NCBI GenBank assembly: GCA_963768055.1
Contig: CAVYGN010000002.1
Location: forward strand, 1,568,001-1,632,000
DNA from: an uncultured Spirochaetota bacterium
GTDB taxonomy: Bacteria; Spirochaetota; Brevinematia; Brevinematales; JAOACQ01
Length of the DNA: 64,000 nucleotides
Direction of reading: 5' to 3'
The notes below the pieces were generated by a model. It ran no database searches, was not told the DNA's origin, and saw only the letters and a program-made list of their open reading frames with translations. This document shows positions 10,898 to 34,226 of this stretch, piece by piece; the first letter of the stretch is position 1, and each line of letters opens with the position of its first letter. Position numbers and translations under genes: made by a program.

Positions 10898-10931
10898 CTT
10901 AGCGATTTTTTCCGTTTCGTGAGTTGACTCC
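10898..10931 (-). repeat. Tn3-type terminal IR (34 bp, shortened)
   Basis: Reverse complement GGAGTCAACTCACGAAACGGAAAAAATCGCTAAG; shares the CTCACGAAACGGAAA core with IRs at 26822 and 34199. Confidence 0.75.
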
Positions 10932-11025
10932 ATGAAGAAAAAGGGGCTGAAATACGGAAGAACAGACGATATTAATACATTCCCATGAATTTAATCCGAT
11001 TAAAAAATATTTAGAAAAAAGGGCG

Positions 11026-11859
11026 TTGATAGTAATGATCATCACTTTGGTAATGATGGTCACTGAAATCATCTCAGGGCTATTGTTTAATTCGGTGGCT
11101 TTATTTTCGGATGGCTGCCATATGGGGACACATTTTACTGCTATAAGCATAACATTTCTTACATTCCTGATGGCGAGAATCCACAGGTGGGATAACAAGT
11201 TTGCTTTCGGGACCTGGAAAATTGAGATACTCGGAGCTTATACAAGCGCTATAATATTGGGCATCGTTGGGCTTTTTATGGTATATGTTTCTGTTCAGAG
11301 GTTTATAAAACCGGAAGCTATCAATTATAATTCTGCGCTCCTTGTTGCCGGGCTTGGTTTGATTGTCAATATTTCAAGCATGTTTATTTTAGGGTTCGAT
11401 AATGAGACTCACCATCATGACGTTTCCAAAGATCATGGGAGTGATTTGAATATTAAATCGGCGTTTATTCATGTTGCGGCAGATGCTTTTACCTCAGTAT
11501 TAATAATCACAGCTCTTCTTGGGGCGAAATATTTTAAATGGAACTTTCTTGATCCAGTAATGGGGATGTTGGGTGCTATCCTGATTTTCATCTGGTCTTT
11601 TTCTTTATTGAAAGATACCTTTAAAATCCTGACAGACAGGGAAATGGACACCCCAATAGTACAGGAGATAAAAGACATAATAGGTAAAGACAGCGGCACT
11701 CAGCTTAAAGATATCCATGTCTGGAGGGTTGCTCAGGATAAATATGCCTGCATACTGTCGATATTTTCAGAAAAAGTATGTACCGTGGACGATTATAAAC
11801 AAAAACTGCTTAAAATGAACAATCTGGTACATGTTACGATAGAACTTAATATTTGTTGA
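11026..11859 (+). CDS. Cation diffusion facilitator (DmeF-like Co/Ni/Zn efflux)
   Basis: SVALFSDGCHM, FAFGTWKIE, HHHD, HVAAD, DIHVW motifs. The frame extends upstream (HSHEFN) without a clear start. Confidence 0.9.
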   Translation: MIVMIITLVMMVTEIISGLLFNSVALFSDGCHMGTHFTAISITFLTFLMARIHRWDNKFAFGTWKIEILGAYTSAIILGIVGLFMVYVSVQRFIKPEAINYNSALLVAGLGLIVNISSMFILGFDNETHHHDVSKDHGSDLNIKSAFIHVAADAFTSVLIITALLGAKYFKWNFLDPVMGMLGAILIFIWSFSLLKDTFKILTDREMDTPIVQEIKDIIGKDSGTQLKDIHVWRVAQDKYACILSIFSEKVCTVDDYKQKLLKMNNLVHVTIELNIC

Positions 11860-11935: not shown

Positions 11936-11936
11936 T

Positions 11937-11962
11937 ATTTTGTCCGAATTCTTCGTCCACCC
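11937..11962 (-). repeat. Partial Tn3-type IR abutting the previous one
   Basis: Reverse complement GGGTGGACGAAGAATTCGGACAAAAT; resembles IR 29759-29796. Confidence 0.6.
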
Positions 11963-12004: not shown

Positions 12005-12033
12005 TTGACAATAGATAATCATTTTCTTATATT
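12005..12033 (+). promoter_or_regulatory. Sigma70-type promoter of the ArsR operon
   Basis: TTGACA-N17-TATATT. Confidence 0.6.
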
Positions 12034-12073
12034 ATTGCATAGATGCGTAATATTGCAAATAAGGATATTTAAA

Positions 12074-12406
12074 ATGAATCAAATGGAGAACAAGGAACTT
12101 TACAAAATGCATGCAGATTTCTGTAAATTCATGGGCAGTCCCAAAAGGATTGAGATTTTATTTGTACTGGGAAACGGTGAGAAATGCGTTGATGAACTGG
12201 CGCAAATTATGGGAATCAATATTCCAAACGTTTCTCAAAACCTGGCTATTATGAAAGACAGGGGAATTGTTGAATCAAGAAGAGATGGCACAAAAATTTA
12301 CTACAGATTATCAAATCCAAAAGTCCTTGAAGCTTGTATGATCGTGAGGGATTTAATGTTTGAACAACTTAATAAAAAAATTAATATGTTTGGAGGAAGT
12401 AAGTAA
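12074..12406 (+). CDS. ArsR/SmtB-family transcriptional regulator
   Basis: PKRIEIL, GEKCVDEL, VSQNLAIM, RRDGTKIYYRL wHTH. Confidence 0.9.
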   Translation: MNQMENKELYKMHADFCKFMGSPKRIEILFVLGNGEKCVDELAQIMGINIPNVSQNLAIMKDRGIVESRRDGTKIYYRLSNPKVLEACMIVRDLMFEQLNKKINMFGGSK

Positions 12407-12646
12407 TGAAATACAGAGAATCAGGAATGCCCGATGAAAATTTGTGGAACAGCTTTTTCGATCGGGTTAAAATCTTTAATTTAATGGAAATTGATAAAAC
12501 AGTAAATCTTCTTATCGATATTGGTTGCGGATATGGAACTTTTTTATTCCCGGCTTCAAAAATAGTCAAAAAAGTTATCGGTATTGATATTGATCCTCAA
12601 ATGATTAAGTTTTGCAAAAATCAAATTAAAGAAAATAAATACGGAA

Positions 12647-12778
12647 CTATACCTTTGACAAACCATCTATCTTAACCTCAAAAATAGCCTTTATCAATTC
12701 TTCGGGTTTTAAGGGATAGGCCGATATTGGTTTATCATACTTTTTCCCTTCGTTTGTTCTCGTTTTTCTCTTTCTCAT
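12647..12778 (-). CDS. 43-aa ORF at the IS end (MRKRKTR...PISAYPLKPEELIKAIFEV)
   Basis: Manual translation; the stop lies inside the IR. Confidence 0.35.
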   Translation of the reverse strand: MRKRKTRTNEGKKYDKPISAYPLKPEELIKAIFEVKIDGLSKV

Positions 12779-12862
12779 TTCATAACCCCATTTTTATATA
12801 CTTGACATAATATATATAATTCCTTTATAATATTTTAGGTAAATCATTAAGGAGTATAAAAT

Positions 12863-13018
12863 ATGCCAAACCCCAATAATGTTGTATGGAAATCATTAGT
12901 CGGTCATCACGAACCTCTTGAAGGTGAGGATATAAGCACATTGTTTGATACCCCTCAAACAGAAACTACTACACAAGAAAATAATAATAACTCTAATAAT
13001 AGTACATCAGATAATTAA
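12863..13018 (+). CDS. 51-aa peptide with Asn/Thr/Ser-rich tail
   Basis: AAGGAG RBS, TTGACA-N18-TATAAT promoter (12802-12831); MPNPNNVVWKSLVGHHEPLEGEDISTLFDTPQTETTTQENNNNSNNSTSDN. Confidence 0.55.
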   Translation: MPNPNNVVWKSLVGHHEPLEGEDISTLFDTPQTETTTQENNNNSNNSTSDN

Positions 13019-13665
13019 TTCTTAATTGTTTCATCTTTAAAAAATTCAATATAATCTATTTTCATTTCGGGTGTTATCAATATCCCATCAATTAATTTTT
13101 TTTTGCCTTTCTTCAAAAGAATAGGGTTATAATAAGGATGAGATAATATTTCTTCTTCATTCTTTTTAAGATAAGGATTCTCAACAAATATATATTGACT
13201 ATCTGGACTATCAGAATATCCATAAATTTGACCTATAATAATTTGACCATTAGACATATGGATATTTGCCCAATTTTTCTTTCCCAAATTTGTTTCCATA
13301 ATATCGTTCCATATAGACATTCTTGATGTTTTTTTTGTGATCTTAATTGTTCTGAAAAACCAATGGAAAGCGTCTCTGTATATTAATACGCCAAATAATA
13401 TTCCATAAAATATACTTATTCCAACCAATTCTAAATATTGAGTAATACACATATAATCATAATTTTCCAGAAAGTTTATGATTTTTTTTCCGTTAATTAA
13501 TTGATAAGTAATGTAAATAAATACTGAAAATATCAATGCTTCAACTATTAAAGTAAACTGATCCCGTCCTTTTCTTACAATTAATGATTCTACAAATATT
13601 GATGCTAATAATCCTGGCATTAGAAAAAACAAAATCTGTATAGTCTCTTTACTTATGCTATCCAT
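13015..13665 (-). CDS. Membrane protein, DUF6338-like, IS passenger
   Basis: FFLMPG start of three TM helices, SIWNDI, GQIYGYSD, GILI; overlaps the transposase stop. Confidence 0.6.
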   Translation of the reverse strand: MDSISKETIQILFFLMPGLLASIFVESLIVRKGRDQFTLIVEALIFSVFIYITYQLINGKKIINFLENYDYMCITQYLELVGISIFYGILFGVLIYRDAFHWFFRTIKITKKTSRMSIWNDIMETNLGKKNWANIHMSNGQIIIGQIYGYSDSPDSQYIFVENPYLKKNEEEILSHPYYNPILLKKGKKKLIDGILITPEMKIDYIEFFKDETIKN

Positions 13666-14615
13666 TAAAAAGCCCCCTTATATTTTAATCTTTTTCCGAC
13701 TATCCCCCTAATAGCGTTTTCTGTTCTTTCTCCATCGCTTTTTTTCCTGTTATTCCATCTGAAATTAAATTCCGCACAATACCTGAAAAGATGTTTTTTA
13801 GAAATATGATGGAAGGTTCCTACGATTCCCCTCTTTAAGAGTGAAAAATATGATTCGGCGGTATTTGTATTGATCCCATTCTCTGAATACTGGCCTATCC
13901 CGTGATTAATTACTTTATGGCCGCCTTTATACTCTTTTTCAATCCCGTTATAACTTCTCCATTCGTCAGTAATAATTGTTGATTCTTTATTAACTACTTC
14001 TTTAATGGCTGACTTTAATGTTTCCCCGGTTACATCGGGAACAGGATGAGATACGGCTTTACCGTTTCTTTCAACCAATACCATTACAGGGACTTTTTCA
14101 GTTCCTCGCCCTCTTTTGCTGTTGCTGTTATTTCCCTTTCTCGGCTTCCCGCCAACATAGGTTTCATCGACTTCAACTTGTCCATTGAGCATATTTGCTA
14201 AAGGCTCCTTTTTCATCGTCATCCTAATCCTATGGGATAAATGCCATGCGGATTTATAAGTATGTAATCCGAGGTTTCTTTGTAACTGGAGAGACGAAAC
14301 ACCCTTTTTATGAGAACACATTGAATAATAAGCCTGTACCCATTGCCTTAATGTAATATGTGACCCATGCATTATTGTCCCGGATGTAACTGTAAATTGC
14401 TTTCTGCAATCCTTACAGCGTATAAGACCATCTCTTATGGTTTTTGCTTTTCCGATGATTCTAACAATATTTTTACTTTCACAATGAGGACATATTATAC
14501 CATCCTTCCAGCGAATATTTTCTAAAATTGTTCTCGCTTCATCTTCCGATAATCGGCAGACATCAATATAAGCCATTTCGCTCATATTCTTATATTCAGG
14601 AAGATTAAATTTCAT
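13665..14615 (-). CDS. IS1595 (ISXO2-like) transposase
   Basis: CPHC..CKDC zinc ribbon, VEVDETYVGG, ITDEW, NTAESYFSLLKR. Confidence 0.95.
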   Translation of the reverse strand: MKFNLPEYKNMSEMAYIDVCRLSEDEARTILENIRWKDGIICPHCESKNIVRIIGKAKTIRDGLIRCKDCRKQFTVTSGTIMHGSHITLRQWVQAYYSMCSHKKGVSSLQLQRNLGLHTYKSAWHLSHRIRMTMKKEPLANMLNGQVEVDETYVGGKPRKGNNSNSKRGRGTEKVPVMVLVERNGKAVSHPVPDVTGETLKSAIKEVVNKESTIITDEWRSYNGIEKEYKGGHKVINHGIGQYSENGINTNTAESYFSLLKRGIVGTFHHISKKHLFRYCAEFNFRWNNRKKSDGERTENAIRGIVGKRLKYKGAF

Positions 14616-15049
14616 ATTTTTTCTCCTATTCATTTATTTCAAGAATAGTATAACTCATTTTCTTTGGTTTGTCAAGTATATAATTCCGAATAAATATAAA
14701 AATATTGAACTTATTTCTGGTGATATTTCACAGAATCATACCTTAGAATTATTAAATCCCTATTTGAACCGGATTGATTATATTACCCTCTTTAATATTC
14801 TTCATTGTGAAGAACCTGTAAAACTTTTAGAGTCTGTTTTTAAAATTCTTAAATCTGGCGGGAAGTTAGGTATAGTTCACTGGAAACATGAAAAGACGCC
14901 AAGGGGGCCGTCTATGGATATCAGGCCGAAACCGGGTCAAATTATTGAATGGGCGGAAAGTGCCGGTTTTATTACGCATAAGCAGATCGAATTGCAGCCT
15001 TATCACTTTGGTATTATTTTTAAGAAGAGAAAGGATAAGGAGGATAGTT

Positions 15050-15655
15050 ATGGAAAAAACCGCGAAAAAATATGATCGTGCATCGAAGACTTATGATTTT
15101 TTTGAAATGCCTGCGGAAAAATTGCTGTTTTCCAGGCTTCGGAAACAGGCATTCAGTAATATTTCAGGGAAAATTCTGGAAATCGGCGTAGGAACTGGCA
15201 AAAACATGCTTTATTATCCGTCAGTCGCCGAAGTTACTGCAATTGACTTCAGCGGCGGCATGCTTGATAAAGCAATGATTATGAAAAATAAGCTCGATCT
15301 GTCAAATGTTAACCTTATAAAAATGGACGCTCAAAATTTGAAATTTGCCAACAGCACTTTCGATTTCGTTATTTCCGCTTTTGTTTTCTGTACAATACCT
15401 GATCCTGTTAAAGGGCTCGCTGAAGCATACCGTGTATTGAAACCTGACGGAAAGGCTATCTTTATCGAGCATATGAAAAGCAGTTCATTACTTTTAAATG
15501 TCATGCTTAATGCGATGAATCTAATTACAGTACCTATGATGGGGACATACATGAACAGGGAAACGCAGAATAATATCGAGAAAGCGGAATTCAGAATAGA
15601 AAGCGTTGAAAAACATGTATTTGATATCGTTCGCCTGATCGTTTCACGGAAATAA
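15050..15655 (+). CDS. Class I SAM methyltransferase
   Basis: ILEIGVGTG, FCTIPDP, YRVLKPDG; AGGAGG RBS before MEKTAKK. Confidence 0.9.
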   Translation: MEKTAKKYDRASKTYDFFEMPAEKLLFSRLRKQAFSNISGKILEIGVGTGKNMLYYPSVAEVTAIDFSGGMLDKAMIMKNKLDLSNVNLIKMDAQNLKFANSTFDFVISAFVFCTIPDPVKGLAEAYRVLKPDGKAIFIEHMKSSSLLLNVMLNAMNLITVPMMGTYMNRETQNNIEKAEFRIESVEKHVFDIVRLIVSRK

Positions 15656-15669
15656 ATAGGGAGGAATTT

Positions 15670-16302
15670 ATGAGAAAGCTATTGTTTTTATCATTACTGG
15701 CATTAATGTTAGCTGGTTTTGTTTATAGTCAGGAAAAGCCGAAAATCATCGATACCGTATTAAACGAAATCCGGCAGGAACAGGGATTAACAAACGGACA
15801 GAAAATTAATGCGGATAAAGTAAGTTCTCTGAAACTTGAGGAATTAGGCGATTCCGTAATGGAAGCAACGATAGGTAATACTGAAAGGCACGAACTGATG
15901 GATAAAATGATAGGCGGAGAGGGTTCCCAATCACTTACAGCTTTTCACCAGAGGATCGGCTACAACTACCTGGCGGGTTACCCTCTTGGAATGATGGAAG
16001 TAACGGGTTGTCCATTTTTCGGAAATTTGAATTCGGGAGGTTATAATATGATGAATGGTTATGGCTACGGGCCGGGAATGATGGGATGGGCCGGATTCGG
16101 CTGGGGAGGAATGTTTATGGGTTTGATATTTCTTGTATTAATAGTGCTGGCAGTCTTATTTATAGCAGGGATGTTAAGAGGAGGCAGTATTATAGGCCGT
16201 TCTGCATCGGAAACACCGCTGGATATACTGAAAAAACGTTACGCAAAAGGAGAAATTTCCAAAGAGGAGTATGAAAAAATGCGTAAAGATCTACTTTCAT
16301 AG
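15670..16302 (+). CDS. Exported His/Met-rich domain + TM + SHOCT protein
   Basis: Signal peptide, HELMDKMIGGEGS domain, Gly/Met linker, TM helix, LKKRYAKGEISKEEYE SHOCT. Confidence 0.75.
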   Translation: MRKLLFLSLLALMLAGFVYSQEKPKIIDTVLNEIRQEQGLTNGQKINADKVSSLKLEELGDSVMEATIGNTERHELMDKMIGGEGSQSLTAFHQRIGYNYLAGYPLGMMEVTGCPFFGNLNSGGYNMMNGYGYGPGMMGWAGFGWGGMFMGLIFLVLIVLAVLFIAGMLRGGSIIGRSASETPLDILKKRYAKGEISKEEYEKMRKDLLS

Positions 16303-16312
16303 GAGGCATTTT

Positions 16313-17185
16313 ATGATGGGAATCAGAATATTACTTGCCGGAGTGTTACTGGCTTTCCCGATGTTCATGTTCTCTCAGGGGATGATGGGAAACGGCAACG
16401 GCTACGGAATGGGAATGATGCGCGGCTATTATAACGACCGTGGGGAAGCCCTGGAAAAATCCGAGGCTGTAAAATCTGTACTTGCAAAAATTAGGAAAGA
16501 ACAGGGTTTGAATGAAGAAGAGCCCATCGATCCTGAAAAGGTCAGCCCAAAGCTCCTTGGAGAATTAGGGGACGCAGTCATGGATGTTATGATAGGCAAC
16601 AAGGAACAGCACGAGTGGATGGACAATATGATGGGCGGGGAAGGCTCGGCGTCGCTTGAAAGAATGCATGAGCAGATGGGATACCGGTACCTGCACGGGC
16701 AACCGATTGGAATAATGGGCAGAGGTTACGGCCCCGGATACGGCGGCATGATGGGGTATTACAGCGGATTTTACGGAAATAATCCGTATATGCCTATGAT
16801 GTCGTTCGGTTCTTTTATGGGAACCGGCACTCTTATGGACATGAATTGGATGCTGGATTACAGGTTCGCGGGATACCTTAGCTTGTCAAAAGACCAGGTA
16901 AAAAAGATAACGGACTTAAAATCAGATTATGAGAAGGAAACCGATTCCTTAAGGTCACAACTGCTTGAAAAAAGACGAAACCTTTTCGATCTGTGGTCCA
17001 CGGCCAAACCGGATGAAAGCGCTATCAAGACTGCCAATAAGGATATATTCATGCTTCTCGCATCTCTTTCGGATAGGGAAACGGATTACCAGATAAAGGT
17101 CCTGGAAATACTTACACCTGATCAGAGGAAGAAAATGGATTACAGAGGTATGATGAATTATCAAAGTAATTACACAAATAATTAA
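16313..17185 (+). CDS. Exported His/Met-rich domain + Spy/CpxP-like periplasmic domain protein
   Basis: Signal peptide, HEWMDNMMGGEGS domain, LSKDQ and ILTPDQR (LTXXQ) motifs. Confidence 0.75.
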   Translation: MMGIRILLAGVLLAFPMFMFSQGMMGNGNGYGMGMMRGYYNDRGEALEKSEAVKSVLAKIRKEQGLNEEEPIDPEKVSPKLLGELGDAVMDVMIGNKEQHEWMDNMMGGEGSASLERMHEQMGYRYLHGQPIGIMGRGYGPGYGGMMGYYSGFYGNNPYMPMMSFGSFMGTGTLMDMNWMLDYRFAGYLSLSKDQVKKITDLKSDYEKETDSLRSQLLEKRRNLFDLWSTAKPDESAIKTANKDIFMLLASLSDRETDYQIKVLEILTPDQRKKMDYRGMMNYQSNYTNN

Positions 17186-17265
17186 AAATACTCAATAAGC
17201 GACGATATAGATTTGATCAATAATGTTGTATGAACACGTAATTCAGAAAACAATAGGAGGTTTCA

Positions 17266-17586
17266 ATGAAATTTGGCATTATTCTTGAAACAAAAGAATA
17301 TGAAAAAGCCTGGAACGCTTTTCGTTTTGCTGTAACATCAAAAAAGAATGGGCATGAAGTAAAAGTCTTTCTTATGGGTGAGGCTGTAGAATGTGAAGGG
17401 TTAACTCACGAAAAATATAATGTCGATGAACAATTGAAAATGTTTGTTAAAGATGGTGGAGAAATACTGGCTTGCGGAACATGCTTGAAATTAAGAAATA
17501 TGGATGGTTCTGAAGCCTGCCCTATTTCGACAATGGTTGACTGTATAAAAATGGTTGAATGGGCGGATAAAGCCATAACATTTTAA
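17266..17586 (+). CDS. DsrE/DsrF-like sulfur relay protein
   Basis: AWNAFRFA, VFLMGEAV, ILACGTCL, ACPISTM. Confidence 0.9.
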   Translation: MKFGIILETKEYEKAWNAFRFAVTSKKNGHEVKVFLMGEAVECEGLTHEKYNVDEQLKMFVKDGGEILACGTCLKLRNMDGSEACPISTMVDCIKMVEWADKAITF

Positions 17587-17618
17587 TTTTATTTGCCCCT
17601 GATTACACCGATGCTCCC

Positions 17619-17914
17619 ATGAGGCTTATTGTTGTAGTTTTTATTGATAAAAACAGCCCGATCGGCAGATTATACCAAAAAAAGAAAAAAGAAAGGCTAT
17701 TTTACAGGTATGCTCATTTTTATTCAGTCAAGAAAGTTACAAATAAATTGAAAAAAGCCGGTTTCACCGGATTTTCATACCGACAGACCCTAAACAATTT
17801 AAATAATGAAACAGTCCAAACATTCGAGGAAGGTTATGGGAAGGGTGGTTTTGTTGTCATAAAAGGAAATAAAATTAAAAAATATTATCATTCCCTTGAA
17901 ACTCCTTTAGATAT
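17619..17914 (+). pseudogene. C-terminal fragment of a SAM methyltransferase
   Basis: FIDKNSPIG...FYRYAHFYS...GKGGFVVIKG, with no N-terminal SAM motif; ends at an IR-like site. Confidence 0.5.
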
Positions 17915-17942
17915 GGGGCCAGTACACAAAACGGAAAAAATC
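17915..17942 (+). repeat. Partial Tn3-type IR
   Basis: GGGGCCAGTACACAAAACGGAAAAAATC, lacking the final ...CTAAG. Confidence 0.55.
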
Positions 17943-17944
17943 CT

Positions 17945-17991
17945 TTGACAATAAGTTGGTCTTTAGATATAATTAGCATATGCTAATTATA
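17945..17991 (+). promoter_or_regulatory. Consensus promoter overlapped by a perfect 24-bp palindrome
   Basis: TTGACA(17945)-N17-TATAAT(17968); TATAATTAGCATATGCTAATTATA at 17968-17991. Confidence 0.8.
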
Positions 17992-18001
17992 AAGGGTTAT
18001 T

Positions 18002-18466
18002 ATGCCTCGTCCTTTTAAATGCAGGAAAGTTGATTACAGCCCTGAAACCACCTTTTTTAAACCTGCAGGGATACCAATAAACGTGCTAGAAGTCATAGTT
18101 CTTTCGCTGGACGAGCTTGAAGCCGTTCGCCTCGCTGATTTTAAAGGTCTGTATCAAGAGGAAGCCGCTCAAAAAATGGCCATTTCAAGACAAACCTTCG
18201 GAAATATCGTTTCTTCCGCGAGAAGCAAAATTGCGGACGCGCTTATAAACGGCAAAGCAATAAAAATCGAAGGCGGATTTGTTGAGGCGATTGAAAGAGA
18301 ATTTATCTGTCCTGACTGCAAGCATAAATGGAGTTTACCCTTCGGCACGGGCCATCCGGCTAAATGTCCGGATTGCCGGAGTATCAATATACATCGCAAT
18401 CAGGAAGATCATGGACAATCATACCATGACAGAGGATGCAATAATCAGCATAATGGGAATCATTAA
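18002..18466 (+). CDS. DUF134 (UPF0251) HTH protein with C-terminal zinc ribbon
   Basis: MPRPFKCR, ELEAVRLADFKGLYQEEAAQKMAISRQTF, CPDC..CPDC. Confidence 0.9.
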   Translation: MPRPFKCRKVDYSPETTFFKPAGIPINVLEVIVLSLDELEAVRLADFKGLYQEEAAQKMAISRQTFGNIVSSARSKIADALINGKAIKIEGGFVEAIEREFICPDCKHKWSLPFGTGHPAKCPDCRSINIHRNQEDHGQSYHDRGCNNQHNGNH

Positions 18467-18479
18467 ACAGGAGGATTAT

Positions 18480-18848
18480 ATGATATTAGCTATCCCTACG
18501 GAAAACATGAGCGGGGAAATATCAACCATTTACAGTCACTTCGGAAGCGCTCCATTTTATGCCTATTACAATACGTATGATGAAAAACTGGATTTTGTCA
18601 ACAACGGGAACAAGGATCATGAACACGGCCGGTGCCAGCCGGTAGATGAATTAAGGGAAAAGAAGGTTGAAGCCGTCGTTTGTAACGGAATGGGGCTTCG
18701 TGCTATCAACAATCTTAATTCGCTTGGCATTAAAGTCTATTTTGCCGGAAACGCACTTAATATCGCGGAAGTTGTAAATATGCTTAAAAATGATGAATTA
18801 AAGGAGCTTCTTCCGGTCAACGCATGTATGCGGCATAATTGCCGCTAA
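18480..18848 (+). CDS. NifB/NifX-family (FeMo-co binding-like) protein
   Basis: HFGSAPFY, HEHGRCQP, VVCNGMGLRA. Confidence 0.85.
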   Translation: MILAIPTENMSGEISTIYSHFGSAPFYAYYNTYDEKLDFVNNGNKDHEHGRCQPVDELREKKVEAVVCNGMGLRAINNLNSLGIKVYFAGNALNIAEVVNMLKNDELKELLPVNACMRHNCR

Positions 18849-18929
18849 AAAGACTGAAATAATTGATCGCCGCAATAGCCCCAATCCGGTCTGAAAATAG
18901 GCCGGTGTACCATGAAAAAACCATGCGGT

Positions 18930-19949: not shown

Positions 19950-19979
19950 TGAATGGCCTCCAAATTAAACTCAATATCA

Positions 19980-25837: not shown

Positions 25838-25838
25838 T

Positions 25839-26483: not shown

Positions 26484-26537
26484 ATATTGATCCCTCTTAT
26501 TCCAAAAATTTCATTCCATTTTTGTTGGAATCAAATG

Positions 26538-26821
26538 TTATACTATACTTAGTCCAGTTTTTTTCAGCATTTCATTATCAAGTATCCCTACCATAAACCC
26601 GATAAAACTATCATATTTATAATCCCATTTATATAAACCTGGTTTTTGCGAAAATTCTTGAATTCCTAATTCTTTAAGACGATATCCCCAAATCTGCACA
26701 GAGCCATTCTGAATATCTCTCCAATCAATAGATACATAATTTTCTATTTTTATGATGAGTGTTTTATCAACAACAACAATATAAGTATCATTACTAATCA
26801 CCTTAAATTCTTTTTCTACTT
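26538..26821 (-). pseudogene. Hypothetical ORF, probably 5'-truncated by Tn-C
   Basis: The frame (VEKEFKVISNDTY...) stays open from the annotated GTG up into the IR at 26822; no RBS. Confidence 0.45.
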
Positions 26822-26950
26822 GAGGTCAGCTCACGAAACGGAAATTTAACCACGCTAAGAATATGAAATATTATAACTGATTGAGATATTAAAAGTGGAT
26901 AATTCATTCACCAAATAATGTTAAAGATCCCACACAGATCCGGCCCAGTT

Positions 26951-27029
26951 GGGGTACTATCGGCATTTCCGACAAAAGTACCGCTAAGCCTGTTTTCTCA
27001 CAAAATTTTCTGAATTTTGTAGCGCTAAG
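26951..27029 (+). repeat. Tandem Tn3-type IRs (one intact, one degenerate)
   Basis: GGGGTACTATCGGCATTTCCGACAAAAGTACCGCTAAG (26951-26988), then a second 38-bp unit ending TTGTAGCGCTAAG (26992-27029). Confidence 0.7.
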
Positions 27030-27114
27030 CAATATTTCCAAGATTTAAAGGCCTCAAATCGTCGGCTTCGGTTTCTTTTTGAACATTGAAGTTGTAATCT
27101 CCGAGAAAATTAAT
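27025..27114 (-). pseudogene. 3' remnant of a further Tn3 transposase
   Basis: Manual translation INFLGDYNFNVQKETEADDLRPLNLGNIA*, comparable to HINLTGDYSW...FRRL of tnpA-C; the stop overlaps the IR. Confidence 0.7.
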
Positions 27115-27214
27115 GGCAGATTTCCCCGGCTGTCCAGGACGATGGGTCGCCGCCACGAAGGAGACGGCAAAGGTAATCAATCATCTGCACCTGCGGCCCT
27201 TCGGGCACAAGCAC

Positions 27215-28231
27215 TCAAGGGCGCACAACCCGGAAGCTGAAATCGTTGATACTGTCAGACGGGAATTGGTTGCCGCGAAAGGTAAGACTGGCTTCAGACG
27301 CATCGTTACCGTTGCCGTAACTGCTACCGCGTATGACGCGGGAAAAGCCCGAAGCCCATGCCTGCCCGCTAAAGCCGGTAGGATCGATAAGCGAACCCGT
27401 ATACGGAAAAGTTCCAAACATCGTAGTCGAATCCCACGCATCCCAGCACCATTGCCATACATTCTCGCTCATGTCGTAAAGGCCGAGTTCGTTGGGAAGC
27501 AATAACCCGACACCTTCCGCTGATGAGTGTGAGGCCGGAGGACCCCAGGCGTAACTATTGATATAGGTATAAGCGTTTCCCGGTTCTTGACTACCCGCAT
27601 AGCCCTTGGAGTAGCCGTTCATGTTCGTCCCCCCGACAATATCGCCGGCCCGGGTGTCGTTGGTCGCCCCCATCGCCGCCCACATATATTCCAACTCCGT
27701 AGGCAGGCGGTATCCGTTTGCCGACCAGTTTACCTGAACCGCATCCCATGTAGCATTATCCGACGTCGGTATTGTACCCCAGACGGAAGGAGACATGCTG
27801 CCGTTAATGGTATATACCGGGGTCAGGCCTTCTGCTATACTAAGATCGTTGCAGAACACAAGTGCCTCGTACCATGTAACATTTTCAACCGGGTGATTGT
27901 ACACGGAAGAATCATGGCTTGGGTCCGTAATCCCTGTTACATTTTGGAATTCTGTGCCGGTGATATCGTTTTTGCTCATATGAAAAGCCGCCGATATAGT
28001 ACAAACGTCGCCCGCCGTTCCGTCATACTGAAAGGCGCCGGCGGGAACATAGATCAATGTTCCGATATTCGGAGATGTATAATTGGTCGCTGTTGAAGGT
28101 TCACTGGAAGATGACGAAGTACTACTGCTTGAACTACCGAATGTGTTTCCAAGATCGGGCGGCTCTATGAGGGCGCAGGAAACTACAACGGCAGTTAAAA
28201 ATATGGCCGATAATAAAACATATTTTTTCAT
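27215..28231 (-). CDS. Lipoprotein with FGE-sulfatase (C-type lectin fold) domain
   Basis: GGAGG RBS, MKKYVLL...VVVSC lipobox, Ser-rich linker, HPVENVTWY, YRLPTE, PNELGLYDMSENVWQWCWD, FRVVRP. Confidence 0.88.
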   Translation of the reverse strand: MKKYVLLSAIFLTAVVVSCALIEPPDLGNTFGSSSSSTSSSSSEPSTATNYTSPNIGTLIYVPAGAFQYDGTAGDVCTISAAFHMSKNDITGTEFQNVTGITDPSHDSSVYNHPVENVTWYEALVFCNDLSIAEGLTPVYTINGSMSPSVWGTIPTSDNATWDAVQVNWSANGYRLPTELEYMWAAMGATNDTRAGDIVGGTNMNGYSKGYAGSQEPGNAYTYINSYAWGPPASHSSAEGVGLLLPNELGLYDMSENVWQWCWDAWDSTTMFGTFPYTGSLIDPTGFSGQAWASGFSRVIRGSSYGNGNDASEASLTFRGNQFPSDSINDFSFRVVRP

Positions 28232-28242
28232 GCATTTTCCTC

Positions 28243-29553
28243 CTATATCCTGACGCCGATGCTCAGCATTGGATATATCTGTAAACTCGGCGATATTCCG
28301 CACCTCACTCCGCCGCCGATAAAAAATCCTCCCCATGACAATTCGAGCTTCAGGACCGGAGATATAATGATCGGAGATGAAAAATAAGAGAACGCCGAGG
28401 CGTCCACCCAGACCCTGAAATCGCCGGATTTCAGGAAAGAGAAAGCGATCCCCGCTTCGGCTTCCGGCACTATCCCTTCGCCCGGATAATAAATGGCTCC
28501 TCCCTCGGCGAAAGCCCTGAAGCTGTCGGTGAAATACCAGCCGAAACCCGCTTCGCCTCCGAGCCCGCCTTCCAGAAGCTCGACAGGGAAATAGAACTGC
28601 CTACCTCCCAATGAAAACTCGACCGGAAGCGTCTTCCCTTCCCCGACCGTCACGGTTCTCGTATCTATGATCTTATTGTCCTTTTCTATACGGATTGTAT
28701 GGTTCGTATCTGATTTAAGGTTATTTATGACAATCTCGCCGCTTTTTTCAGTCTCGCCGGCAAACACGTCGTCGGCGAAAACCTTTATTCCTGGCGCGCC
28801 AATCCTCACGTCGACGGTGCCGGAGGGGGTGTATGTAATGATCCTGTCCTCGCCGTCTTTTAGGGTAACCGTTTTATGATAAACTTCCTGCTCGTTTTCC
28901 GCCAGTGTAAGCGATATTTCAAGTGGTTCGTCCCCGGCTTCGTTTTCCCTGAAGCCGTCATTTCTTGTGATCTTTTTCCGGAAAACCTTGTTTATAGTCA
29001 GGTTATAAGTCGAATCGGATGAAATATCAACCTCCAGGCTTCCCATTGTCACTGTATGTCCGACCAGTTCGCTCGATATGTTCCGTATGAGTTTATCTAT
29101 AGTGTCGAAGATGCCGGCGCCCGAATCGCCCGAATAGTCCCTTTTCAGCTTGAGCTCGGCGGTAGCGGGGTCATAAACATAAACGGTGATCTTTATCGTG
29201 CCGTTCTTTTTATTGACTTTATAAGTCCCCGTTACCACTTGCTTTACAGCGAGGTCGAGCCCCATTTCCACGGCGGTATCGACGTCGAGGTCTTTGGACT
29301 GCCAGAAATTTTTTTCAAGGGCAAGTTTTTCCATCGCCTCATAGGATGTAACCTTTGTTCCGCTGATATTTCCCAGGAAGGTTATGAGCGATTTGCTGAT
29401 GACTTTATTTATCGAATCGTCAGTTTTATCGCCCTGGTTGATAAACCCTACTACGGCTATGGTTTTAACATCCCCCACCTGCGCGGTCGATAAGTCTGGA
29501 AGACTAAAACAAATTGAGAAAAACAGTGAAATAAACAGGACATACTTTTTCAT
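28243..29553 (-). CDS. Exported protein: TolB-N/CsgG-like domain, PEGA-like repeats, C-terminal beta-barrel-like region
   Basis: Signal peptide, IAVVGFINQG, VVTGTY, alternating aromatic beta strands at the C-terminus. Confidence 0.6.
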   Translation of the reverse strand: MKKYVLFISLFFSICFSLPDLSTAQVGDVKTIAVVGFINQGDKTDDSINKVISKSLITFLGNISGTKVTSYEAMEKLALEKNFWQSKDLDVDTAVEMGLDLAVKQVVTGTYKVNKKNGTIKITVYVYDPATAELKLKRDYSGDSGAGIFDTIDKLIRNISSELVGHTVTMGSLEVDISSDSTYNLTINKVFRKKITRNDGFRENEAGDEPLEISLTLAENEQEVYHKTVTLKDGEDRIITYTPSGTVDVRIGAPGIKVFADDVFAGETEKSGEIVINNLKSDTNHTIRIEKDNKIIDTRTVTVGEGKTLPVEFSLGGRQFYFPVELLEGGLGGEAGFGWYFTDSFRAFAEGGAIYYPGEGIVPEAEAGIAFSFLKSGDFRVWVDASAFSYFSSPIIISPVLKLELSWGGFFIGGGVRCGISPSLQIYPMLSIGVRI

Positions 29554-29710
29554 TAAAACCCCCCGCTCGAATTAAAAAGTAATAAAGACATCGGAAAACC
29601 AAAAGTTTTTTTTCATGTTTGTCCCTCATTGTGTTTTTTATATCCGTTATTAGCTACCTTTCATTATTGATAATATTTTATTGAATCATATAATAATAAT
29701 CAAACAAATT

Positions 29711-29796
29711 GGGGTGGACGCAGGAAACGGATAATTTTGTACGTTAAGGAAGTTACTTGGGGCGGACGTAGAATTTGGACAAAATTGTACGCTAAG
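29711..29796 (+). repeat. Two tandem intact 38-bp Tn3-type IRs
   Basis: GGGGTGGACGCAGGAAACGGATAATTTTGTACGTTAAG (29711-29748) and GGGGCGGACGTAGAATTTGGACAAAATTGTACGCTAAG (29759-29796). Confidence 0.85.
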
Positions 29797-29820
29797 GTTT
29801 TAAGGGTGCCACCGCTTTTT

Positions 29821-30117
29821 CTATGCTGTTATCTTTTCATCGAATTTTATAACGTTTCGCGGTTTTTTATATGCCTCCCAGTAGTTTAACCTGGTCTGCA
29901 TATTGTACCAGCTCTCCGGACTCGTGTTTGTAGCCTCGCCAATCCGGATAGACATTTCAAGGCTCAAGGCGGCATGCTCGTGGATTATATCAACAAGCAT
30001 TTTTCTGGTGATCCCCAGCCGTTTAGCCGCCTCGGTTACGGTCATTCCCAGGGGTTTTATTACGTCTTCAAGCAACACTTTTCCTGGATGGGTGGGTCGC
30101 CTTTCTGTTATATTCAT
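29821..30117 (-). CDS. higA: HigA antitoxin
   Basis: PTHPGKVL, HTH, TSPESWYNMQ. Confidence 0.92.
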   Translation of the reverse strand: MNITERRPTHPGKVLLEDVIKPLGMTVTEAAKRLGITRKMLVDIIHEHAALSLEMSIRIGEATNTSPESWYNMQTRLNYWEAYKKPRNVIKFDEKITA

Positions 30118-30129
30118 TTTATTGTCCTC

Positions 30130-30408
30130 TCAATGATAATCTTCATAATCAACTGAAACAACATTTTCATTTTCAAATTTAAAAGTCAGTCTCCAATTCC
30201 CGCTAACATCAGCCGCCCATGTACCTCTACGCTTGCCCTGAAGTTCATGAAGTCCGTATGCCGGAAGATTCATGTCGGATGGTGCTTTTGCGGTCGCAAG
30301 CCTATCGAGCATCCTAAAAAGTTTTTCGGCATGGTTGGGATCGATGCCCTTTTTAGTGCCTGTGTCAAAAAAGGCTTCAAGCCCTTTGTGTCGGAAAGAC
30401 TTTATCAT
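30130..30408 (-). CDS. higB: HigB toxin
   Basis: MIKSFRHKGL...LHELQG...VSGNWRLTF...DYEDYH. Confidence 0.92.
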   Translation of the reverse strand: MIKSFRHKGLEAFFDTGTKKGIDPNHAEKLFRMLDRLATAKAPSDMNLPAYGLHELQGKRRGTWAADVSGNWRLTFKFENENVVSVDYEDYH

Positions 30409-30415
30409 ATAGTTA

Positions 30416-30444
30416 ATTGTAATATGAGTAGTGCGGCTTGTCAA
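30416..30444 (-). promoter_or_regulatory. higBA promoter
   Basis: TTGACA-N17-TACAAT ending 7 nt before the ATG. Confidence 0.7.
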
Positions 30445-30495
30445 GTTGATTTATAGAATAGGTCCGGGTTGAAATATGATCTATGGCCAATAATC

Positions 30496-30615
30496 TGTCA
30501 GAATGAAGTATACTCTAATCTGACGTCAGGATACCTGCCTAAAACACGTCAGAATAAAGTCATATAATATATTTATTGACACAATTATAAAAAGGTCTTA
30601 GACTCTAATCTGACA
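30496..30615. other. res site (subsites I-III)
   Basis: TGTCAGAATGAAG-TATA-CTCTAATCTGACG (site I, central TATA), CGTCAGAATA...TATTGACA and ACTCTAATCTGACA upstream of tnpR. Confidence 0.8.
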
Positions 30616-30634
30616 TATTTCATAGAGGTATGAT

Positions 30635-31213
30635 ATGACAGAACATAAAGTGGGTTATCTTAGGGTTAGCTCTATCGACCAGAATACTGACAGACAATTA
30701 GAAGGCCTTACTCTGGACAAGGTATTTATTGATAAGGCATCCGGCAAAGATATTAAACGTCCGGAACTCGAGAAACTGATCGAATTCGTCCGAAAAGGTG
30801 ATACGATCGTTGTACACAGTATGGACCGGTTAGCCCGCAACCTGGATAATCTGAGGCAATTAGTTCAAAATCTTACCAGTCGCGGCATCAAAATCCAGTT
30901 TTTAAAAGAAAACCTTATTTTTACAGGCGATGATTCCCCGATGTCAAACCTCCTGTTATCAGTTATGGGGGCTTTTGCGGAATTTGAACGGGCGCTGATA
31001 CGGGAGCGGCAGCTTGAAGGAATAGCCCTGGCTAAAAAGAAGGGAGAATATAGGGGCAGAAAAAAAACTCTGTCAGCCGAACAAATAAGACAAATCAGGG
31101 ATAGGGTAGCAGCTGGGGAAATGAAATCTAAAATTGCACGGGACATTGGAATCAGCAGGGAAACCCTTTATCAATACCTGAAAGGAAATGGAAATTTGAA
31201 TGCCCCGACGTAA
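30635..31213 (+). CDS. tnpR: Serine resolvase
   Basis: GYLRVSS, SMDRLAR, EFERALIRERQ, ISRETLYQYL. Confidence 0.95.
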   Translation: MTEHKVGYLRVSSIDQNTDRQLEGLTLDKVFIDKASGKDIKRPELEKLIEFVRKGDTIVVHSMDRLARNLDNLRQLVQNLTSRGIKIQFLKENLIFTGDDSPMSNLLLSVMGAFAEFERALIRERQLEGIALAKKKGEYRGRKKTLSAEQIRQIRDRVAAGEMKSKIARDIGISRETLYQYLKGNGNLNAPT

Positions 31214-34166
31214 AATATTTTCTTCCGAAGAATATTTATCATTGCTTGCTTTCCCAACTGAACAGGCCGATCTTGTCCAATGCTATGCCTTTTCAGAAAA
31301 CGATCTGTCTGTCATAAGGCAGCATCGTGGGAATCATAACAGGCTGGGGTTCGCCATTCAGCTATGCTGCCTTCGTTATCCCGGCATAACTTTAACCCCC
31401 ACTGATCAACCGCCTGCAGACCTGATAATTTTTGTAGCCAGTCAACTGAATGTCAATCCGGATGATTGGAATAATTATGCTGAAAGGGACCAAACCCGCC
31501 AGGAACACTTGCTTGAAATTCAGAAAAGATTCAAATTCCAGATGTTTTCAACAGTCTGGTATAGACATTTTATAAAAAAACTGATGAACCTTGCCTTACA
31601 GACTGATAAAGGGATAGTCCTGGCAACCGCATTAATTCAGGAACTTCGTAAAAAGCAAGTTATCATTCCGTCAATGGATGTCATTGAACGGCTGGTATCA
31701 GAAACAATCTACCAGGGAACGAACAGAATATATCAAATTCTTGCCGGATCGTTTACAGAAGAACAACGCCTGAAACTGGATAGCTTGTTGTCATTGAAAC
31801 CGGACACGAGAATAAGCGTCCTGACATGGCTGAAGCAGCCTCCCGGACCTCCAAAGACCAAGCATATATTGAAACACATTGAACGTTTAAAATACGTGAT
31901 GTCATTCTCCATAGATGATGAGATCGGACGTCTGATACATCAAAACCGGCTTCTGAAAATTGCCCGGGAAGGCGGCCAAATAACAGCCCAGCATTTGCGT
32001 GATTTTGAGACTAGGCATCGTTACGCCACACTGACGGCTATCCTTATAGACGTCAAAGCCACCCTTATTGATGAAATTGTGGATTTGCATGACAGGATTA
32101 TGGGGAATCTTTTTAACAAGGCAAAGAACAAACATGCTGAAAAATTTCAGAAATCAGGTAAGGCCATTAATGAGAAAATAAGGTTATACTATCAAATTGG
32201 CCAGGCATTGCTTGATGCAAAGATAAATGGCACTAATCCCTTCGAAGCGGTTGAGGCAATTATTCCATGGAATGATTTTACACAGAGTATTAACGAGGCC
32301 CAGAAACTCATGCAGGCAGAAAACTTTGACTATCTATATCTTATTGGTAGTGGATACACACATATCAGGAAGTATGCCCCGGCACTACTGGACATCCTGC
32401 AGCTGAAAGCCGCGCCTTCGTCCCGGGAATTATTAGATGCGATAGAAATCCTGAGGAATATGAACTCAAATAATATCCGGTCTGTTCCGGAAAACGCTCC
32501 TGTCGGATTTGTAAGGAAACGCTGGGAGAAACTGGTACTTACCAATGATGTAATTGACCGCCGGTTTTATGAGTTATGCATCCTGGCTGAATTGAAAAAT
32601 GCTTTGCGGTCAGGCGATATCTGGATAAAAGGGGCGCGTCAATATAAGGATTTTGAAGAATACCTTCTACCTGTCAATCAATTCACAGAATTGCTGGATA
32701 GGAAAGAACTGCCAATAGCCGTTGTTACAGACTTTGATGATTACATTAAGGAACGATTTTCATTGCTGGAAGAAATACTGCAAACCGTGGACAGTCTGGC
32801 AAGCCAGAATCAATTACAGGATGTCTCGATCACAAAATCAGGTCTTAAAATATCTCCTCTGGCAGATGACGTACCCGATGAAGCCAAAGCCTTAACAAGC
32901 CGATTGTATTCCTTTCTGCCTCACCTGAAGATTACTGATCTTCTTCTCGAAGTGGATAATTGGACCGGATTTACCAGTAAATTTACCAACATGAAAACAG
33001 GAGAGGCTGCTAATGATCGCGCCCTTCTTCTGACCGCGATCCTTTCTGATGCCATTAATCTTGGATTAAGAAAAATGGCCGAATCCTGCGAGGGTATTAC
33101 GTATGCCAAGCTATCATGGCTGCAGGCATGGTTTATAAGGGACGATACTTATTCTGCAGCATTGGCCGCTCTTGTTAATGCTCAAATTGGACAGCCTCTT
33201 GCGTCATATTGGGGCGACGGCACTGCTTCCTCATCTGACGGCCAGTATTTCAGGTCAGGCTCACATGGTAAAGCGTCAGGCCGTTTTAATGCAAAACATG
33301 GTGATGAACCCGGAATCATGTTCTACACCCATGTCTCGGATATATATGTTCCATTTTATGTTCAGCCTTTACATCCTACAATGAGTGAATCGCCCTTTGT
33401 AATTGACGGCCTTCTTTACCATGAATCCGAGCTCCGGATTAAAGAACATTTTACCGATACGAGAGGTTTCAGCGACCATGTGTTTGCGTTAATGCACCTT
33501 CTTGGATTCAATTTCGAACCACGTATCCGAGATCTTGCCGATAAAAAGCTCTATATCCCTGGAAACCAGAAGGCTTATCCAATATTATCTCCATTGATAG
33601 GCGGCAGCATTGACAAAAAACTGATCCGGGATAATTGGAATGAAATACTTCGTCTTGCAACATCAATCAAACAGGGAACTGTTACAGCCTCTTTGATGTT
33701 AAGAAAGTTGAGCGGTTATCCTCGGCAGAACAAACTCTCGTTAGCCTTGCGTGAATTTGGCCGTATAGATCGTACACTATTTACCTTGAACTGGTTAAAA
33801 GATTTAGAAATGCGAAAGCGAGGTCAGATTGAGTTAAATAAAGGAGAATCTGAACACTATCTTGATCGGGCTGTTTTCTTTAATCGGCTTGGAGAGATCA
33901 GAGACCGGAGTTTTGAGAACCAGCGTTTCAGGGCAAGCGGCCTGACTACTGTCGTGGCGGCTATCATACTTTGGAACACTGTTTATCTAAACCGGGTATT
34001 AACCGAATTAAGAGATAAAGACGAAATAATAGATAATGACTTGCTTCAGCATGTTTCACCTTTAGGCTGGGAACATATCAATCTTACTGGGGATTATAGT
34101 TGGCGGCAAAATAAACAGGTTGAGAAAGGCAAATTTAGACGGCTGAATTACTTTGAAAATCCTTAA
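31200..34166 (+). CDS. tnpA: Tn3-family transposase (Tn21-like), intact
   Basis: MPRRKI, NRLGFAIQL, SSDGQ, TDTRG, LNKGE, SPLGWEHINLTGDY. Confidence 0.96.
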   Translation: MPRRKIFSSEEYLSLLAFPTEQADLVQCYAFSENDLSVIRQHRGNHNRLGFAIQLCCLRYPGITLTPTDQPPADLIIFVASQLNVNPDDWNNYAERDQTRQEHLLEIQKRFKFQMFSTVWYRHFIKKLMNLALQTDKGIVLATALIQELRKKQVIIPSMDVIERLVSETIYQGTNRIYQILAGSFTEEQRLKLDSLLSLKPDTRISVLTWLKQPPGPPKTKHILKHIERLKYVMSFSIDDEIGRLIHQNRLLKIAREGGQITAQHLRDFETRHRYATLTAILIDVKATLIDEIVDLHDRIMGNLFNKAKNKHAEKFQKSGKAINEKIRLYYQIGQALLDAKINGTNPFEAVEAIIPWNDFTQSINEAQKLMQAENFDYLYLIGSGYTHIRKYAPALLDILQLKAAPSSRELLDAIEILRNMNSNNIRSVPENAPVGFVRKRWEKLVLTNDVIDRRFYELCILAELKNALRSGDIWIKGARQYKDFEEYLLPVNQFTELLDRKELPIAVVTDFDDYIKERFSLLEEILQTVDSLASQNQLQDVSITKSGLKISPLADDVPDEAKALTSRLYSFLPHLKITDLLLEVDNWTGFTSKFTNMKTGEAANDRALLLTAILSDAINLGLRKMAESCEGITYAKLSWLQAWFIRDDTYSAALAALVNAQIGQPLASYWGDGTASSSDGQYFRSGSHGKASGRFNAKHGDEPGIMFYTHVSDIYVPFYVQPLHPTMSESPFVIDGLLYHESELRIKEHFTDTRGFSDHVFALMHLLGFNFEPRIRDLADKKLYIPGNQKAYPILSPLIGGSIDKKLIRDNWNEILRLATSIKQGTVTASLMLRKLSGYPRQNKLSLALREFGRIDRTLFTLNWLKDLEMRKRGQIELNKGESEHYLDRAVFFNRLGEIRDRSFENQRFRASGLTTVVAAIILWNTVYLNRVLTELRDKDEIIDNDLLQHVSPLGWEHINLTGDYSWRQNKQVEKGKFRRLNYFENP

Positions 34167-34226
34167 CGTGGTTAAATTTCCGTTTCGTGAGCCGACCCCT
34201 ATATAAGTAAAATTAATGCTTCGGTA

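Follow-up and report, generated by a model that had tools for sequence, protein, structure and literature searches.

The locus and its setting

The window analysed here is a stretch of 64,000 nucleotides (nt) of an uncultured Spirochaetota bacterium (assembly GCA_963768055.1; G000:C2:1568001-1632000), whose genome of 3.69 Mb consists of two contigs, C1 and C2. Positions are those of the window, and negative coordinates lie to its left. Between 10.9 and 34.2 kb, passenger genes alternate with terminal inverted repeats (IRs) of Tn3-family transposons. An earlier note had taken this segment for a gene-capture array, in which transposons grow outward by adding end-delimited modules and one transposase could move nested subsets of the cargo. 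We consider it likely that the segment is instead the core of a strain-specific island, in which at least seven Tn3-family elements were inserted in or beside one another and then truncated.

In the sister genome G001 about 235 bp separate the flanks of the island (left of L001:4069 and right of 34399), so that roughly 50 kb (-15930..34398) are specific to this strain. From the left the island carries an intact transposon, Tn-D (-12588..-7758), a complete type I-C CRISPR-Cas (clustered regularly interspaced short palindromic repeats) locus (about -4816..3267), the transposon Tn-B, the remains of Tn-A and the segment itself, which ends with a fourth transposon, Tn-C. In its left part (L001 6963-7331, window about -13040..-12670) there is a weak match to Rep3_C, a plasmid initiator, together with ankyrin-repeat genes; these are hints of an integrated plasmid remnant.

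Terminal inverted repeats

Ends were sought with a profile hidden Markov model built from 45 ends of the same class in other genomes and ten ends from this analysis. It was supplemented by pairwise scans; an ungapped weight matrix overlooks ends with small indels and the class of Tn-D. The Tn-B class and the end IR_F (see below) are not modelled by the profile, and the Tn-D class scores too low on it (8.9 bits). A scan of the whole genome with an IR profile, as the earlier note had proposed, returned 12 matches at E<0.05. They are confined to two clusters: seven in the segment (10928/10931, 11935, 23405, 26822/26824, 29711, 29759/29760 and 34199) and five in C2:1161023-1178708. The best match outside both clusters reached 11.4 bits (E 0.97).

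Eight of the eleven ends listed earlier are clear (10931, 11935, 23405, 26822, 26951, 29711, 29759 and 34199). The remaining three did not survive as such: 11962 is a fragment, 17915 is weak and 26992 is no end. The map of open reading frames (ORFs) and Pfam matches bears out the further statement that the ends sit between genes and bracket recognizable blocks.

The leftmost are two minus-strand ends of class 1b, L10931 (10894..10931; tip GGAG; 22.1 bits, E 4e-4) and L11935 (11898..11935; 25.8 bits, E 3e-5). The tip of the latter cuts off a class-2 end of the type found at 23405, of which the outer 27 nt remain (11936..11962, minus strand). L17627 (17588..17627, minus strand), absent from the earlier list, matches a variant of the Tn-B class at 32/40 positions and the copy at C2:1678559 at 29/40 by hand count. 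The IR-like sequence R17915 (17915..17952, plus strand) scores 9.5 bits (E=4) and matches 10931 over 30 nt at 80%; taken by itself, it is indistinguishable from noise. L23405 (23368..23405, minus strand; class 2; 18.6 bits, E 0.0055) is 89% identical to the end of a transposon in genome G006. It stands tip to tip, across 5 bp, with IR_F (23411..23449, plus strand), a second addition to the list: a 39-bp end of the Tn-B family with three perfect copies in the genome.

The left end of Tn-C (26822..26859, plus strand; class 1a, tip GAGG) is followed by a relic of a Tn-D copy (26951..27114, plus strand), which consists of an IR, subterminal DNA and a tail of tnpA-D. The IR at 26951 scores 8.9 bits, below the profile threshold, yet is identical at 38/38 positions to both ends of the intact Tn-D 36 kb upstream. 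The reported tnpA tail beside one of the ends is real: 27028-27126 encodes amino acids 959-991 of TnpA-D (85%). The repeat at 26992 falls inside a 168-bp, 96% identical copy of the Tn-D terminus and, since Tn-D has the same sequence internally, it is not an independent end. R29711 (29711..29748, plus strand; 27.7 bits) stands between class 2 and class 1a; R29759 (29759..29796, plus strand; class 2; 21.5 bits) begins 10 bp inside it. The right end of Tn-C (34162..34199, minus strand; class 1a; 30.1 bits, E 1e-6) closes the segment.

As had been noticed, the core CTCACGAAACGGAAA occurs exactly at four sites. The pattern GRRGTNNNCTCACGAAACGGAAA matches at least 125 stretches in genomes of many phyla, most commonly in the form GGGGTCAGCTCACGAAACGGAAAAAATCGTACGCTAAG, and the core is therefore a signature of the family and no sign of common recognition. 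Among 135 class-1 ends elsewhere the tip is GGGG in 130, GAGG in four, GGGA in one and GGAG in none; the tip of 10931 thus looks decayed, and that of 26822 is rare.

Transposons of the island

Tn-B is bounded by a 40-bp IR (3273..3312, plus strand; tip GGCC after one A) and by its right end (7125..7164, minus strand), to which the left end is 80% identical. It encodes a tyrosine recombinase (3316..4053, minus strand; Phage_integrase 7e-25) and an intact transposase of 1004 amino acids, TnpA-B (4104..7118, plus strand; DDE_Tnp_Tn3 1-389/389 and DUF4158), which is 64-66% identical to transposases of Bacillus/Paenibacillus plasmids that adjoin a tyrosine recombinase. Beside it, tnpA-A (7165..9338, minus strand) breaks off near codon 725, precisely at the end of Tn-B, and retains only positions 2-135/389 of the DDE domain. 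Its remainder was not found in the genome, nor was any orphan C-terminal fragment when full-length TnpA-B, -C and -D served as queries, and relatives of TnpA-A in the phylum amount to one weak match among 300 genomes. The tyrosine recombinase of Tn-A (9416..10060, minus strand) is 37% identical to that of Tn-B, and a PIN-like gene follows. Tn-A and Tn-B thus pair a Tn3 transposase with a tyrosine recombinase, presumably in the manner of Tn4430 (TnpI).

Tn-C carries a serine resolvase gene, tnpR (30635-31213), and an intact tnpA-C of 988 amino acids (together 30635..34166, plus strand; Pfam), preceded by a HigA/HigB toxin-antitoxin pair (29821..30444, minus strand; Pfam). TnpA-C is 59-61% identical to plasmid transposases of the Tn3 family. 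That these are members of the family is plain from their terminal IRs, which measure about 38-40 bp and have a GGGG or GGCC tip and an inner part that is conserved, from TnpA-B and TnpA-C, which cover the full DDE_Tnp_Tn3 profile, and from the resolution modules, namely tnpR and the two tyrosine recombinases. The transposase gene of Tn-D, upstream, is likewise intact.

Within the segment 26822/34199 is the only cognate pair around an intact tnpR-tnpA. It encloses the Tn-D end and the adjoining tnpA tail, a pair of passenger genes and two ends that belong to a third class. Tn-C is a 7.4-kb composite that has engulfed dead foreign ends and may plausibly still move as one unit. As a unit it is absent from 60 relatives. 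A 5-bp target duplication was found neither for Tn-B or Tn-C nor for any pair of rightward (R) and leftward (L) ends in the segment; perfect ones occur only at Tn-D (TAGTA, outside the window) and at a mini-element on C1 (TAATG).

Contigs of four public metagenome runs (X1-X4) were compared with window positions 15000-34900, and are informative where contigs cover them. X1 and X2, from freshwater sediment, are at least 99% identical and probably contain the source strain; where their contigs come loose, the sequence is that of other genomic copies of the same IRs. X3 and X4 are peat runs from another study and contain relatives. Evidence from such contigs, of low depth and from mixed communities, is a matter of hints. 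In X3 the match of one contig to the right flank starts at 34199 (98.6%), and the preceding 100 nt of that contig have no match on 15000-34900; the match to the island therefore breaks at the Tn-C tip.

Six classes of ends

The twelve ends between 10.9 and 34.2 kb represent six classes, namely 1a (the ends of Tn-C), 1b (the Tn-A type), 2, that of Tn-D, the Tn-B-class variant and IR_F. Each matches a different transposase lineage. Positions shared are 38/38 among the Tn-D ends and 26951, 38/38 for -5102/7164, 35/38 for 26822/34199, 33/38 for 10931/11935 and 30/38 for 3273/7164; the remaining pairs share 13-29/38, against 30-38/38 for cognate pairs. Class 1 ends (GGGGTC.GCTCACGAAACGGAAA...ACGCTAAG) we take to be like those of the Tn21/Tn501 group, and class 2 presumably resembles the end of Tn1721.

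Class 2 comprises 23405, 29759 and the 11962 fragment, with 29711 intermediate. In sister genomes it is the end of TnpA-C-like transposons (56-61% identity). One G003 copy (L009) is flanked by the duplication TACTT and a second (L027) has none; that of G006 (L024 7354-14267) has AGAAT, and one in G004 (L028 5008-15690), with a variant class-2-like end (27-28/38 to 29759), has TTATT. A search of G000 found no transposase of this lineage with class-2 ends left there. The 10.7-kb G004 transposon (G004:C2:439007-449689) carries a Gp49/HTH pair, a tyrosine recombinase and tnpA, with TetR, LolA-like and MMPL genes downstream of the last; at L028:5810 a class-1-like IR relic lies between the toxin-antitoxin pair and the recombinase.

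In an alignment, ends of the Tn-B family measure 39 bp; the outer 19 nt vary (tip GGCC or GGGG) and the inner part is conserved. More than 121 metagenome contigs contain the inner 20-mer shared by IR_F and the Tn-B-class variants, and 26 of 120 analysed Tn-B-family loci encode TnpA-B-like proteins, with up to 86% identity over short C-terminal stretches. Two solo ends of the variant class lie in the same orientation 6.2 kb apart in G000 (C2:1672355 and 1678559); one follows a Gp49/HTH pair and adjoins an AEP-TOTE primase-helicase gene, a conflict-system domain.

Cargo blocks

The CDF cation-efflux gene (11026..11859, plus strand; Cation_efflux 3e-34) lies between L10931 and L11935, two ends of the same class and orientation. 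The blocks were compared with two sets, the 60 relatives and 124 loci that carry ends of the same class. The gene has no close DNA copy in the relatives, and at the 124 loci a CDF protein beside class-1 ends was met once, at 43% identity. Of 22 passenger proteins compared with these loci, 19 had no match and three had distant ones (32-43%).

An arm of ArsR, methyltransferase, SHOCT, Metal_resist and DsrE genes (12005..17586, plus strand; Pfam) runs up to L17627. In G002:C111 the ArsR-to-Metal_resist cluster (68-82% nt identity in seven segments) also terminates at a Tn-B-class IR, which has the same orientation. Here the methyltransferase gene is split by an IS1595-family insertion sequence (12631..14691, minus strand; Pfam) with a DUF6338 passenger ORF, while in G002 it is uninterrupted. 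The element has a 100% identical copy at C1:361235-363295 and was therefore probably active recently. Beyond the tip at 17627 stand the C-terminal 83 codons (17625..17873, plus strand; ORF 17619-17948) of a methyltransferase of about 216 amino acids, cut exactly at that tip. The ORF is 66% identical in amino acids to residues 133-215 of an ORF in G002:C79, and the N-terminal part of the gene is absent from the whole genome.

The next arm (18002..23310; Pfam) encodes DUF134, NifX-like, ArsP, DGC, ArsR, CsoR-like, TauE and ICMT-like proteins and ends at L23405. In the duplication-flanked transposon of G006, TauE-ICMT (82% nt identity) and DsrE (85%) adjoin the class-2 end, and in an X4 contig DsrE is likewise joined to an end of class 2. 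At 17905-17962, upstream of this arm, the weak IR-like sequence at 17915, here of 46 bp, is flanked by a 10-bp direct repeat (CTTTAGATAT). It supplies the -35 box and, with the second CTTTAGATAT copy, forms a perfect TTGACA-17-TATAAT promoter ahead of the DUF134 operon.

Inside Tn-C, the putative surface-protein pair of the earlier note, a gene with an FGE-sulfatase domain and a 436-amino acid ORF with no Pfam match (27215..29553, minus strand), has a counterpart pair in G003 at 70-72%, which is followed by a Tn-B-class variant IR.

No block was found elsewhere bounded by its two ends, in the relatives or at the 124 loci, and the search for blocks in other contexts with 5-bp duplications, which the earlier note had suggested, was fruitless in the same sets. 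Identity to the peat contigs (X3/X4) varies along the segment: 91-92.5% at 15000-15971, 98.3-99.7% at 17860-20610, 94.5% at 20645-21006, 94% at 21293-21618 and 95-96% at 27794-29254. The edges of the 17860-20610 block are not IR tips.

Clustering and density of the ends

Of the 11 gaps that separate the ends, four are no longer than 130 bp (27, 6, 129 and 48 bp), which has a probability of about 0.0013 in simulation; heterologous Tn3 ends thus cluster within about 130 bp of each other. The segment holds seven profile matches in 23 kb, against one to four per approximately 20 kb in 31 comparison loci of at least 15 kb (one in 15 loci, two in 13, three in two and four in one). Same-orientation neighbouring ends occur elsewhere too (L053, L087, L109, L097, L064 and L047), and the Tn3 family may in general tend to have ends near one another. 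In a Hylemonella gracilis record (L109) two tandem same-orientation ends, at 9955 and 10001, are 46 bp apart, and L052 has a 264-bp IR-IR unit at 10001-10264.

The second cluster of G000 (C2:1161023-1178708) comprises five Tn3-type ends and no transposase. Among its genes are a resolvase, a BglII-type restriction-modification pair and IS21- and IS3-type elements. It includes a 194-bp IR-IR unit (1168053-1168246) without a duplication, and behind one of its ends, of class 2, comes a HigBA pair with 67% identity to the pair in Tn-C.

Two candidate signs of transposition were examined and set aside. One-ended transposition might account for the flanking 5-mers TACTT (26822, 29759) and TATTT (11935, 23405); the TATTT of positions 11936-11940 continues the class-2 IR, and the rest is possibly coincidence. 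A duplication ATTGT at -5102/17627 needs a base before GGCC in the end, contrary to the family alignment; it is also ruled out by the gene cut at 17627, whose N-terminal half is neither left of -5102 nor elsewhere. No empty site for this pair was found in the relatives.

Origin of the segment

Probably, then, different Tn3-family elements landed in or beside one another's ends and were later cut down, which left a pile of cargo arms, each one-sided, and of solo ends. The blocks other than Tn-C are such arms, whose transposase side is gone. The lost halves may have been removed by adjacent deletions starting from the left end of Tn-B and the right end of Tn-C. The six classes of ends, their clustering and density, the similar neighbouring ends elsewhere and the strain-specific island agree with the stack of relics. 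What speaks for it is directly visible in the identity and class of the ends, in the missing duplications, in the recurrence of two arms with their own end class, and in truncations at tips: tnpA-A at the Tn-B end, the methyltransferase at 17627, and the class-2 IR at its nt 27 by 11935. The Tn-D copy inside Tn-C is cut within tnpA.

Several points weigh against this reading. No intermediate or empty site for events inside the segment was recovered, so the order of insertions and deletions is one that we infer. The run of orientations, LLLL R L RRRRR L, which nested insertion plus deletion would explain, is not itself significant (p about 0.18, simulation). The equal 5-mers flanking same-orientation ends (TACTT at 26822/29759, TATTT at 11935/23405) are unexplained. 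Tn-C is perhaps impaired, as its left tip GAGG may suggest (4/135 in its class). Resident transposases may recognize non-cognate ends, as far as letters can tell. Finally, 29711 matches 34199 at 28/38 positions, and in an X4 contig of low depth a 29711-like end is linked with tnpA-C-like DNA, so that the 29711 class may be usable by a close relative of TnpA-C.

The last observations are also among the arguments for a working multi-end array, in which end-delimited modules would be added outward and the resident transposase would mobilize nested subsets (26822, 29711 or 29759 with 34199; 17915 with 23405). Such an array would also accord with the outer cognate pair of Tn-C enclosing inner ends, with the inner foreign end of the duplication-flanked G004 transposon and with the non-autonomous IR-bounded element that did transpose in G000. 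Precedents are Tn1721, which uses two alternative end pairs (PMC5736529), and Xanthomonas, in which mobile insertion cassettes (MICs) form tandem clusters and some have more than two IRs (PMC4337579). We nevertheless think an array unlikely. Ends within each nest are of different classes, no pair shows a duplication, and no block has an independent copy with its ends. As partners of 34199, 29711 shares 28/38 positions and 29759 only 19/38. The CDF block stands between same-orientation ends beside a broken transposase. In the proposed unit 17915/23405, 17915 is not a significant end. The peat-shared block (98-99.7%) has edges away from IR tips. With six classes of ends, the mobilization of nested subsets by one transposase found no support; growth by adding modules stands as history, in the foreign ends enclosed by Tn-C and in the G004 transposon, and not as a working array.

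The shifting identity to the peat relatives, with 17860-20610 at 98.3-99.7% between neighbours at 91-96% and edges off the IR tips, raises the alternative that the blocks were assembled mainly by homologous recombination or gene conversion among related strains in a plastic island, the IRs being incidental. The same genes in different orders in G002, G004 and G006 and the paralogous clusters elsewhere in G000 agree with this. Many junctions, however, fall exactly at end tips (7164, 11935, 17627, 23405/23411, 26822 and 34199), the ends cluster significantly, and the reads behind the identities are assembled in low-depth contigs of mixed communities; we judge recombination quite unlikely as the main agent. 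That the ends reflect no more than accidental similarity of AT-rich DNA to a loose consensus is extremely improbable. The failure of 17915 and 26992 as independent ends and the weak 25-27/38 matches scattered through the genome (nine in a shuffled contig) would fit chance, but the significant profile matches are confined to two clusters in 3.69 Mb, pairs match at 38/38 and 35/38, and the same classes flank transposases in other genomes; for ten of the twelve ends chance is already refuted.

Type I-C CRISPR-Cas loci as possible transposon cargo

The trailer end of a CRISPR array of 13 repeats, CRISPR2 (23516..24340, plus strand), lies 66 bp from IR_F, and the array is followed by cas2, cas1 and cas4 of a second type I-C locus (24512..26483, minus strand; Pfam). 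Two consecutive repeat-spacer units (23715-23846) are 100% identical, a duplicated spacer. The ORF orf87 (26538-26801), tried as a remnant of Cas7, had no match.

At C1:116595-116981 there is a 387-bp element flanked by the duplication TAATG, each of whose ends is a perfect IR_F. Inside it are the 66-bp trailer known from CRISPR2, a single repeat of CRISPR2 type, a spacer of 33 nt, a part-repeat of 16 nt and the 3' terminus of an ORF for a tyrosine recombinase; over 160 bp the element shows 96% identity to window 23404-23562. The orthologous site in the sister species G002 is exactly 392 bp shorter and has a single CAATG, an empty site. We therefore read CRISPR2 with cas2-cas1-cas4 as an arm of a Tn3-family transposon whose deletion derivative has transposed.

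The complete type I-C locus (CRISPR1, cas2-1-4-7-8c-5-3) is placed in a similar manner, between Tn-B and a 39/40 copy of the Tn-B right end at -5102 (C2:1562898). This copy is inverted and identical to it over 43 bp (100%); the identity reaches 4 bp into the flank. No target duplication surrounds the locus. The left end of Tn-B is 5 bp from the cas3 ORF, which leaves no room for a cas3 promoter of its own.

From the arm with IR_F, the transposed derivative on C1 and the upstream locus we lean, by a modest margin of belief, towards the view that transposons of the Tn-B class carry type I-C CRISPR-Cas here, and that their ends attract insertions, building the densest stack of Tn3 ends among the loci compared. 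IR_F was found in 0/100 genomes of relatives at up to three mismatches, and the recombinase of its parent nowhere else in the genome. None of 120 metagenome contigs, mostly short, had cas genes or CRISPR-like repeats beside a Tn-B-family end motif, and an array with the same repeat in G001 has no IR_F at its low-coordinate end. Literature searches, judged at the level of search results, brought up no Tn3-family transposon with CRISPR cargo. The segment supplies a chromosomal parent arm that links a Tn3-family transposon to a CRISPR-Cas locus.

Comparison with known systems

The model of the earlier note would have meant a new way of gene capture. We see an exceptionally dense, though ordinary, product of known Tn3-family behaviour: nested insertion, truncation and composite formation, for which Tn1721 and clusters of MICs are precedents. 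Cargo arms common to several species, each with its own end class, indicate a route of metal- and sulfur-related genes into the transposon pool.

An integron-like array is a poor description of the segment: its delimiters are IRs of transposons, in six classes, its recombinases serve transposon resolution and a repeat search revealed no family of cassette sites. The MICs related to TnXax1 in Xanthomonas are passenger genes without transposase between Tn3-type IRs, accompanied by solo IRs and clusters in plastic regions (PMC4337579). They have one IR class, a cognate transposase and many 5-bp duplications, whereas here there are six classes, no duplication of a block and no second copies. [quoted passage not shown] The 387-bp element on C1 and the 194-bp unit of the second cluster have this form. 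The former, carrying CRISPR repeat-spacer sequence and a recombinase tail, is a deletion derivative of a cargo-bearing transposon. No block of the segment is such a unit with two inverted cognate ends: those of the CDF block point the same way, 17915 and 23405 share 20/38 positions, the 27215-29553 pair has only R-type ends around it, and all lack 5-bp duplications and copies in other contexts.

A close likeness is to Tn1721/Tn1722; Tn1721 is described as having an extra 38-bp end oriented like one of its terminal ends, cargo in between and a truncated transposase copy beside an end, and as having arisen from two transposons and a deletion (PMC5736529). L10931 and L11935 around the CDF gene recall it, as does the 26951 relic with its tnpA tail. 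In Tn1721 three ends of one class accompany an intact transposase and both units move. The CDF pair is of one class (33/38) but stands beside the broken tnpA-A, whose other end is lost; the tnpA tail comes from Tn-D and not from the enclosing Tn-C, and the ends nested in Tn-C are of foreign classes. Compared with transposons of the Tn21/Tn501 type and with Tn4430, the transposases of this island, at 59-66% identity to their nearest plasmid-borne counterparts, belong to unnamed members of the family.

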